From assembly GCA_000004695.1 (NCBI GenBank), contig CM000155.2, positions 800,001-864,000 of the forward strand: 64,000 bases of DNA, given 5' to 3'. Shown piece after piece: positions 41,885-42,646 of this stretch. The stretch is from Dictyostelium discoideum. Taxonomy: Eukaryota. The position numbers were made by a program, and so were the translations under genes. The notes below the pieces were generated by a model. That model did no database searches. It had not been told where the DNA came from and was given only the letters and a program-made list of their open reading frames with translations. Each line of letters opens with the position of its first letter. Within the stretch, counting starts at the first letter, position 1.

Positions 41885-42034
41885 ATGACAGAAATTAATT
41901 CAGGTGCTCCAGTTTCTCATATGGCCCATCATATTCCAAAATTTGCAAAATATACAAAAGTTTGTTTATTATTTTTATAATTATAATAATTATTAAAATA
42001 AAATAAAATTTTTACCCTTTTTTTTTTTTTTTTT

Positions 42035-42065
<31 letters not shown>

Positions 42066-42646
42066 TTATTTTTTTATTTTTTAATAAAAAATAATAGGAC
42101 ATTGGTTTGGCTGATCCAAAGAAAGAAATTCAATATTCAATCGTTTTAAAAATTAGAAACCAAGAATGGATTGAAAAACAAGTATGTTTTTTTTTTTTTT
42201 TTTTTTTTTTTAATATTACTATTATTTTATTAATTCTTTATAATTATCTAATATCTATTAAATTTTTAAATTTTTTCTATTAATTATTTCCAAAAAATAA
42301 AAAAAATAAAATAAAAAACTGCTTTAAAGATGTTCAAAATCCAACTTGTGAAAACTTTGGTAAACTTTTGGGAAGGGGTGAAATAAATTCATTGACAAAA
42401 CCTTCCCAGGCTCATTTTGATAAAGTTTCCAACTTTTTACAATCCAAAGGTATTCAATCAACTAGAGATGGTGATAATTTAAAGGTATTATCATCAATTG
42501 AAAAAACTCAAGACTTATTTAAAACTCAAATCCATAAATTTACCCAACCATCTGGTAGTCAAGATGACACAATTTATAAAAGAGTTGGTGGTTTCCAAGT
42601 TCCTCCAGAAATCTCTGATTGTGTTGATTTAGTTGTTGGTTTTTAA
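41885..42646 (+). CDS. Sedolisin/TPP1 pro-domain-only gene (Pro-kumamolisin activation domain) with no catalytic domain. Three putative exons (41885..41962, 42104..42181, ~42330..42646). The exon 2/3 junction is out of frame under canonical splicing, so this is a possible pseudogene or a sequence error.
   Basis: Exon 2 [28 protein letters not shown] matches TPP1 [27 protein letters not shown]. Exon 3 [21 protein letters not shown] ... [23 protein letters not shown] matches TPP1 [24 protein letters not shown] ... HVDFVGGL. A stop follows immediately where the S53 catalytic domain should start. Donors GTTTGT (41963) and GTATGT (42182) both leave phase 0. The only upstream AG (42328-42329) puts VQNP... 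in frame +2. Confidence 0.5.

Follow-up and report, generated by a model that had tools for sequence, protein, structure and literature searches.

Is a protease pro-domain that is encoded without its protease, and whose exons do not join in frame in the reference sequence, a gene or the remains of one? This question is raised by positions 41885-42646 (plus strand) of a stretch of chromosome 6 of Dictyostelium discoideum AX4, the whole of which (64 kb, G+C content 23.5%) is referred to here as the window and provides all coordinates. A preliminary description of the locus had reported a stand-alone pro-domain gene of the S53 (sedolisin/TPP1) type with a splice-frame conflict next to an assembly gap, and had named three possible reasons: pseudogenisation that left a fragment, a junction of non-canonical type, or an error in the sequence. 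The interval corresponds to DDB_G0291952. We aligned the DNA with four loci of relatives and one SRA-derived Logan contig (L002); the comparison sources included the sister assembly GCA_054883475.1 of a near-identical D. discoideum (L003) and SRA run SRR26869267. DDB_G0291952 is a genuine three-exon gene, annotated and conserved, and its product is the core of an S53 pro-domain of 160 aa. We hold with considerable confidence the joint reading of this gene structure and of a reference artefact of AX4 at the junction.

Gene structure and encoded pro-domain

The exon coordinates given in the preliminary description (exon 1 at 41885-41959, exon 2 starting at 42098, stop codon TAA at 42644-42646) and all peptides quoted there were found in the sequence, and an in-frame stop is present 5' of the ATG. 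Exon 2 and exon 3 are listed below both in the form derived from relatives and in that of the annotated AX4 model.

Exon 1: 41885-41959, plus strand; ATG start, ends in phase 0 with donor GTTTGT; same in L003
Intron 1: 41960-42097, plus strand; GTTTGT...TAATAG, few AX4-specific differences at 42010-42040
Exon 2, form used by all relatives: 42098-42181, plus strand; ends in phase 0 with the strong donor GTATGT (42182)
Exon 2, annotated AX4 model: 4 nt longer, to 42185, plus strand; weak donor GTTTTT
Intron 2, as placed from relatives: 42182-42322, plus strand; true acceptor corresponds to 42321-42322
Exon 3, as placed from relatives: 42323-42646, plus strand; LKDVSDPSSENYGKHLGKDEIESMTKPSQ...DLVVGF, stop TAA at 42644-42646
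Exon 3, annotated AX4 model: start at 42330, plus strand; follows the AG at 42328-42329

The position of intron 1 is kept in D. purpureum and C. fasciculata. In a Pfam scan the spliced product matched the Pro-kumamolisin activation domain (PF09286) over residues 23-158, covering profile positions 2-139 of 143, with 102.7 bits against a cut-off of 23.5 (E=2.6e-29), and the homology to this domain that had been read from the exons is indeed strong. At E values up to 1 the same scan yielded only one chance hit beyond PF09286 and no match to Inhibitor_I9. The family profile aligns with residues 38-172 of human TPP1 (E=1.4e-8). The AlphaFold (AF2) model shows an alpha/beta domain with a mean pLDDT of 81 and disordered residues 1-20, and its sole significant neighbours in the PDB are the pro-domains in 3EDY, 3EE6 and 1T1E (Foldseek E=3e-10 to 5e-8, matches spanning 140-145 columns, TM about 0.7). 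The predicted fold is that of the TPP1/pro-kumamolisin pro-domain. DDB_G0291952 thus resembles the pro-segments of human TPP1 (3EDY, 3EE6) and of pro-kumamolisin (1T1E) in sequence and in predicted fold, with the VSDP..xYG motif common to all of them. Its most conserved residues (SDP..xYG, R45-N46 and W49) are likewise common to enzyme-linked pro-domains, and a conserved N-terminal motif, P-x-F-A-K-Y-T-K-D, is specific to the family.

Unlike TPP1 and pro-kumamolisin, DDB_G0291952 is a separate gene without linker, cleavage site, catalytic domain or signal peptide. The protein ends (...VVGF) at the equivalent of TPP1 residue ~173, about 22 residues before the TPP1 cleavage point (195/196), so that the linker with this site is missing. 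As the preliminary description had stated, the ORF terminates where the S53 catalytic domain would begin. The catalytic domain with its Ser-Glu-Asp triad is absent; in none of the relatives does the ORF continue beyond the pro-domain, and no coding sequence for the catalytic domain was found in the 64-kb window by tblastn with 33 full-length sedolisins (best E=0.11). Resequencing does not restore one long TPP1 ORF, an outcome that had been held possible. A heuristic screen for signal peptides revealed no hydrophobic segment in the first 40 residues of any family member; the maximum hydropathy over 9 residues ranges from -0.5 to 1.8 in the family versus 2.1 to 3.8 in full-length sedolisins. The stand-alone character of the pro-domain gene had been recognised correctly, and it extends to the relatives.

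The next gene lies on the minus strand and is unrelated, as had also been noted. It occupies 42775-43868 and encodes an FR47-like GNAT acetyltransferase (PF08445, 302 aa, with introns), which is the same in AX4 and L003 and syntenic in three other D. discoideum assemblies; the synteny is absent in D. dimigraforme and D. purpureum. An obsolete AX4 model of 207 aa (P0005, UPI00004E4483) splices the pro-domain at VDLVV to a plus-strand ORF at 42917-43078, antisense to the acetyltransferase gene, and is an annotation relic.

The exon 2/3 junction and the flanks of the assembly gap

In the AX4 sequence as given, donor CAA/GTATGT at 42182 (slashes mark exon boundaries) joined to the AG at 42328-42329 leads to a frameshift and an early stop. 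This AG is the sole AG in intron 2, in agreement with the preliminary description, and the frame conflict exists for the donor considered there. It is avoidable, as a second GT at 42186 (CAAGTAT/GTTTTT) had been overlooked: spliced to the same AG it gives an in-frame product of 159 aa, which shows 100% identity over the full length with annotated DDB_G0291952 (XP_001134499, UniProt Q1ZXB2). The annotation had already settled the conflict through this canonical but weak donor.

Donor 42182 with acceptor 42328 is ruled out as the true product, since the relatives use a different acceptor. The annotated donor at 42186 (T/GTTTTT) is conserved in no relative and gives 'QVYVQNP' versus 'QLKDVSDP' in all others; we judge it probably an annotation work-around.

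At a 90% identity level, the D. dimigraforme orthologue clusters with 160-aa proteins of other D. discoideum isolates, D. citrinum and D. firmibasis, which are identical or nearly identical to AX4 apart from one stretch that reads ...EKQLKDVSDP(K/S/N)SENYGK(H/Y)LGKDEIESMTKP... in its non-AX4 form. The DNA at the acceptor site 42321-42322 is GC in AX4 and AG in L003, L002, L004, L005 and L001, and the junction GTATGT...ATAG/CTA AAA GAT gives a 160-aa protein (...EKQLKDVSDPSSENYGKH...). The canonical junction is also found in two other strains and four further species. As a phase-0 junction it was seen in four other assemblies of the D. discoideum complex, the SRA-derived contig, D. purpureum and C. 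fasciculata, and all relatives have a phase-0 GT-AG intron 2 at one and the same codon boundary.

Intron 2, D. discoideum (non-AX4): CAA/GTATGT...ATAG/CTA AAA GAT
Intron 2, D. purpureum: GTAAGT...AAAAAG/TTA AAA GAT
Intron 2, C. fasciculata: GTATGT...TACTAG/TTA AAG AAT
L003, acceptor and start of exon 3: ATAG/CTAAAAGATGTTTCAGATCCAAGTAGT...
Corrected model: joins ...GAAAAACAA (end 42181) to CTAAAAGAT (start 42323)
Annotated model: joins ...CAAGTAT to ATGTTCAA

At the level of the aligned DNA, the real exon 2/3 junction is shown in the relatives to be the ordinary phase-0 CAA/GTATGT...ATAG/CTA-AAA-GAT. A non-canonical junction, one of the options raised before, is unnecessary. In AX4 the conserved frame extends 5' of the AG, with F-K-D at 42323-42331 (F-K-D-V at 42323-42334) matching the L-K-D of all relatives, which indicates that an acceptor at 42321-42322 has been lost.

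The differences between AX4 and its relatives at this junction belong to a short stretch close to the assembly gap. The gap had been described as 110 N lying about 300 bp upstream of the gene; the distance is right (308 bp to the ATG), while the size is 100 N.

AX4-specific patch: 42319-42409; 91 bp with 21 substitutions and no indels
Left-flank zone: 40459-41288; 15 AX4-specific substitutions, mirrors the right-flank zone 41775-42409
Assembly gap: 41477-41576; 100 N, ends 308 bp 5' of the ATG

Within the patch the acceptor AG is lost, and exon 3 has 12 of its first 24 codons changed. L002 equals L003 across its full 1,022 bp, and both differ from AX4 by exactly 21 substitutions and 0 indels, all within 42319-42409. 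To the right of the gap, 6,086 aligned bases contain 28 substitutions between AX4 and L003, all of them in 41775-42409, followed by none in 42410-47662 (5.25 kb); on the left side there are none in 39160-40458. All 43 substitutions between AX4 and L003 therefore fall into the ~1 kb that adjoins the gap on either side, with none in more than 6.5 kb beyond. In 42410-43900, a segment with 0 substitutions between AX4 and L003, ~23 substitutions per kb separate AX4 from two other D. discoideum strains (L004, L005), and by this comparison of sequences L003 is a member of the AX4 lineage.

The gap corresponds to 2,380 bp in L003 (L003 2313-4692), an intergenic stretch of homopolymer runs and AT-rich short repeats, which is plausibly why the original sequencing failed there; no tRNA and no ORF >82 aa were found in the 2.38 kb. 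A (TTTA)n microsatellite of ~20 units (41050-41140) is situated immediately to the left of the gap. Small AX4-specific clusters of A/T swaps relative to L003 occur at 41775-41780 and 42010-42040 in the 5' flank and intron 1, together with a poly-T length difference of 8 nt in this zone. An isolated single N is present at 30260. On the minus strand upstream, the neighbouring gene, which ends near 40844, encodes an Asn-rich protein in which AX4 and L003 differ only in the gap-flank zone (40459-40922), with 'YNRTRRNNSNNNYQVSTINRVNNNNNNIF' in AX4 and 'YNSTSSNNSNNNYHVSTINNVNNNNNNNF' in L003. Going by this comparison, several residues of its reference protein are probably incorrect as well.

Fourteen of the 21 changes in the patch fall where other assemblies have A, and its coding changes comprise 5 synonymous versus 13 non-synonymous ones, set against a gene-wide dN/dS of 0.08 (versus D. 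dimigraforme). They alter the family-invariant residues S58 and Y65 as well as the nearly invariant L54, D59 and S62. The 92-aa ORF of the AX4 type is on record in no other public assembly looked up, and four Logan contigs carry the corrected type. Among 5.8 billion proteins the patch peptide shares words with no other protein, which argues against a paralogue as donor in a conversion event.

At the edges of a gap, Sanger assembly depends on the tails of single reads, and differences between otherwise identical genomes that are confined to gap edges form the pattern of contig-end sequencing errors. With strong support from the distribution of these differences we infer that the AX4 reference has ~21 wrong bases at 42319-42409, in low-quality contig-end sequence beside the gap. 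These wrong bases would have erased the acceptor AG and garbled 12 codons, and the database model would then have regained the frame through the weak GT that follows four bases later, with the 159-aa protein as the result. The sequence error named in the preliminary description is hence the option backed by evidence, and its link between the frame conflict and the assembly gap was a good one, because the AX4-specific differences cluster on both gap flanks.

A rival reading is that the AX4 laboratory strain truly carries the 21 substitutions, which would represent a cluster of mutations or a short tract of conversion. AX4 would in that case have a strain-specific pseudogene (42182 joined to AG 42328, with frameshift and stop) or a gene that persists by use of the weak donor at 42186. 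In favour of this, it is what the given sequence shows, and the frame stays open across the patch. Sanger tail errors usually bring indels, and a patch with 0 indels is atypical of poor Sanger reads, which counts against the error reading; moreover, L003 and L002 are tied to the AX4 lineage by sequence alone. Real substitutions would nevertheless have to be limited to the two flanks of a gap and absent from more than 6.5 kb beyond, show a strong bias to what look like miscalled A positions, arise with no paralogue carrying the patch peptide as conversion donor, be found in no other assembly on record, and be accompanied by scattered changes of a like kind in the upstream neighbour on the opposite flank. 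We consider this very improbable and retain contig-end errors as the reading of the patch.

Conservation and distribution of the family

By the Nei-Gojobori method, dN/dS is ~0.08 in the comparison with D. dimigraforme (dS 0.43) and 0.2-0.36 with D. purpureum and C. fasciculata, and DDB_G0291952 is under purifying selection. Both intron positions and the terminal ...DLVVGF-stop are kept as far as Cavenderia, and six independent genome loci show an intact frame with canonical GT-AG introns. The distribution of the family was determined by an exhaustive profile search, with the following matches:

Cavenderia: 307 bits
Polysphondylium violaceum: 161 aa, 235 bits
Heterostelium: 196 bits; the domain starts an 886-aa model, probably mis-fused
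Acytostelium: 158 aa
'Heterolobosea sp. BB2' transcriptome: complete 172-aa ORF
Trinity transcriptome: 147-aa ORF
Metagenome contig: 146-aa protein
Metagenome protein of 1,983 aa: domain within it, 99 bits

Family members score at least 99 bits and ordinary sedolisin pro-domains at most 75 bits, a gap that speaks for an old, separate lineage. Three short pro-domain-only relatives without signal peptide (P0016, P0017 and P0018) lie outside the Dictyostelia: one each from the 'Heterolobosea sp. BB2' transcriptome, the Trinity transcriptome and the metagenome contig. To go by these matches, the family may be older than the social amoebae by far, unless the non-dictyostelid sequences are contaminants.

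Several gene models carry C-terminal extensions, namely those of D. purpureum (166 aa), C. fasciculata (224 aa) and H. album (886 aa, P0014), and these are not conserved. The DNA of C. fasciculata reads DLVVGF-TAA, whereas the 224-aa model spans 3.2 kb (L007 3001-6237), which identifies this model as over-extended; the H. album model looks over-extended as well. In D. purpureum (L006 3590-3700) an extra G before a T-run abolishes the stop.

That the locus is a decaying, functionless fragment of a duplicated tpp1 without catalytic exons, as its pro-domain-only content, the absence of the catalytic domain from the window and the broken look of the AX4 junction had suggested, is hardly credible in view of same-length orthologues with two shared intron positions and a shared stop from D. 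discoideum to Cavenderia, Polysphondylium and Acytostelium, the low dN/dS values in all three comparisons, the score gap of an old separate lineage, complete ORFs in two transcriptomes and the reported expression in late development (PMC5536908).

Possible function of the free-standing pro-domain

The stand-alone pro-domain gene is real, but it had previously been annotated and described: Stumpf et al. (2017) already designated DDB_G0291952 as "prodomain only", and in public RNA-seq data, including those of Parikh 2010, they found moderate expression restricted to late development (PMC5536908). In the D. discoideum genome they detected no S53 partner devoid of a prodomain, and they drew a comparison with a separately encoded bacterial pro-fragment (PMC5536908). 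The new points of our analysis are the corrected 160-aa sequence and junction, the purifying selection, the wider family without signal peptides and the errors on both gap flanks, those in the coding sequence of the upstream neighbour included.

In sedolisins, the S53 pro-domain serves to fold the catalytic domain to which it is attached and inhibits it transiently. On the model of the free-standing propeptide-like proteins known for subtilases, the DDB_G0291952 protein might dock onto the catalytic domain of at least one Dictyostelium Tpp1 paralogue (Tpp1A-F), where it would act as an inhibitor in trans or, less likely, as a folding chaperone. It would do so in late development, and a cytosolic location is probable because the protein has no signal peptide. 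Since the residues common with enzyme-linked pro-domains are kept (SDP..YG, RN, W), a trans binder or inhibitor of Tpp1A-F appears to be the most economical reading. Two observations speak against docking on Tpp1: the linker with the TPP1 cleavage site, which joins the pro-domain to the catalytic domain, is missing, and a cytosolic location would part the protein from the Tpp1 enzymes, which are lysosomal or secreted. Searching the literature for sedolisin pro-domains that act in trans gave nothing relevant, and no report that the protein binds and inhibits a cognate protease was found. We put the docking proposal forward tentatively and rate its chances as below even.

Free-standing inhibitors that resemble subtilisin propeptides and act in trans are represented by yeast proteinase B inhibitor 2, Pleurotus proteinase A inhibitor 1 (PoIA1), Arabidopsis SPI-1, Plasmodium SUB1-ProM and Toxoplasma MIC5 (PMC6993865). 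Each is a small, separately encoded protein that imitates the pro-domain of a protease of the subtilase clan (SB) (PMC6993865). DDB_G0291952 shares with this class the feature of an independent gene product with a propeptide-like fold only. The known inhibitors belong to the S8/I9 propeptide family, whereas DDB_G0291952 is of the S53 type and has no I9 match in Pfam; their inhibition depends on a C-terminal tail placed in the active-site groove. Yeast Pbi2 is cytosolic and its target is vacuolar, an arrangement that a signal-peptide-free protein facing lysosomal Tpp1 would parallel.

The proposal can be widened to the whole family, in which case an old group of S53-propeptide-only proteins without signal peptides, from Dictyostelia, a heterolobosean transcriptome and protists, would be trans-acting inhibitors or regulators of sedolisin/TPP1. 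In this general form we regard it as possible, though doubtful.

The fold may also have been recruited to a role that has nothing to do with proteases, for instance that of a binding module active in the cytosol late in development. Such a role would fit the missing signal peptide, the family-specific motif at the N-terminus and the ancient divergence from enzyme-linked pro-domains. It is at odds with SDP..xYG, R45-N46 and W49 being the same as in those pro-domains, as conserved residues of this kind suggest that the ancestral interaction surface has been kept, and we think it unlikely.

A further alternative is an external (intermolecular) folding chaperone, rather than an inhibitor, for a sedolisin-like enzyme without its own pro-domain. 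S53 pro-domains are intramolecular chaperones, and Stumpf et al. raised the precedent of Aeromonas sobria, in which ORF2 is the external chaperone of the serine protease ASP (Kobayashi et al. 2015, cited in PMC5536908). ORF2, like DDB_G0291952, is a separately encoded, pro-fragment-like protein (PMC5536908); it serves a protease that lacks a propeptide of its own and is encoded by the adjacent gene of a bacterial operon. DDB_G0291952, in contrast, has no adjacent catalytic partner and none without pro-domain is known in the D. discoideum genome (PMC5536908), and a protein without signal peptide would not meet an enzyme of the secretory pathway during its folding. An external chaperone therefore appears improbable, and the tentative reading as a trans inhibitor of Tpp1 is the one we prefer.

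For users of the AX4 reference, the consequences are practical. In the reference protein Q1ZXB2 (159 aa), probably 13 positions are incorrect and one residue is missing, and the DDB_G0291952 model uses a spurious donor and acceptor, errors that cloning or modelling from AX4 coordinates would inherit. More generally, the flanks of gaps in AX4 (~1 kb on each side) can carry dense base errors that mimic pseudogenisation, the upstream neighbour being affected too. Biologically, it is of modest interest that an organism serving as a model of CLN2 disease has a conserved TPP1 relative that consists of the pro-domain alone. We know of no earlier protein inhibitor family for S53 peptidases; if the members of the family were indeed trans inhibitors, they would, to our knowledge, constitute the first, and would open a way to study how TPP1 is regulated in Dictyostelium as a model of CLN2 disease.
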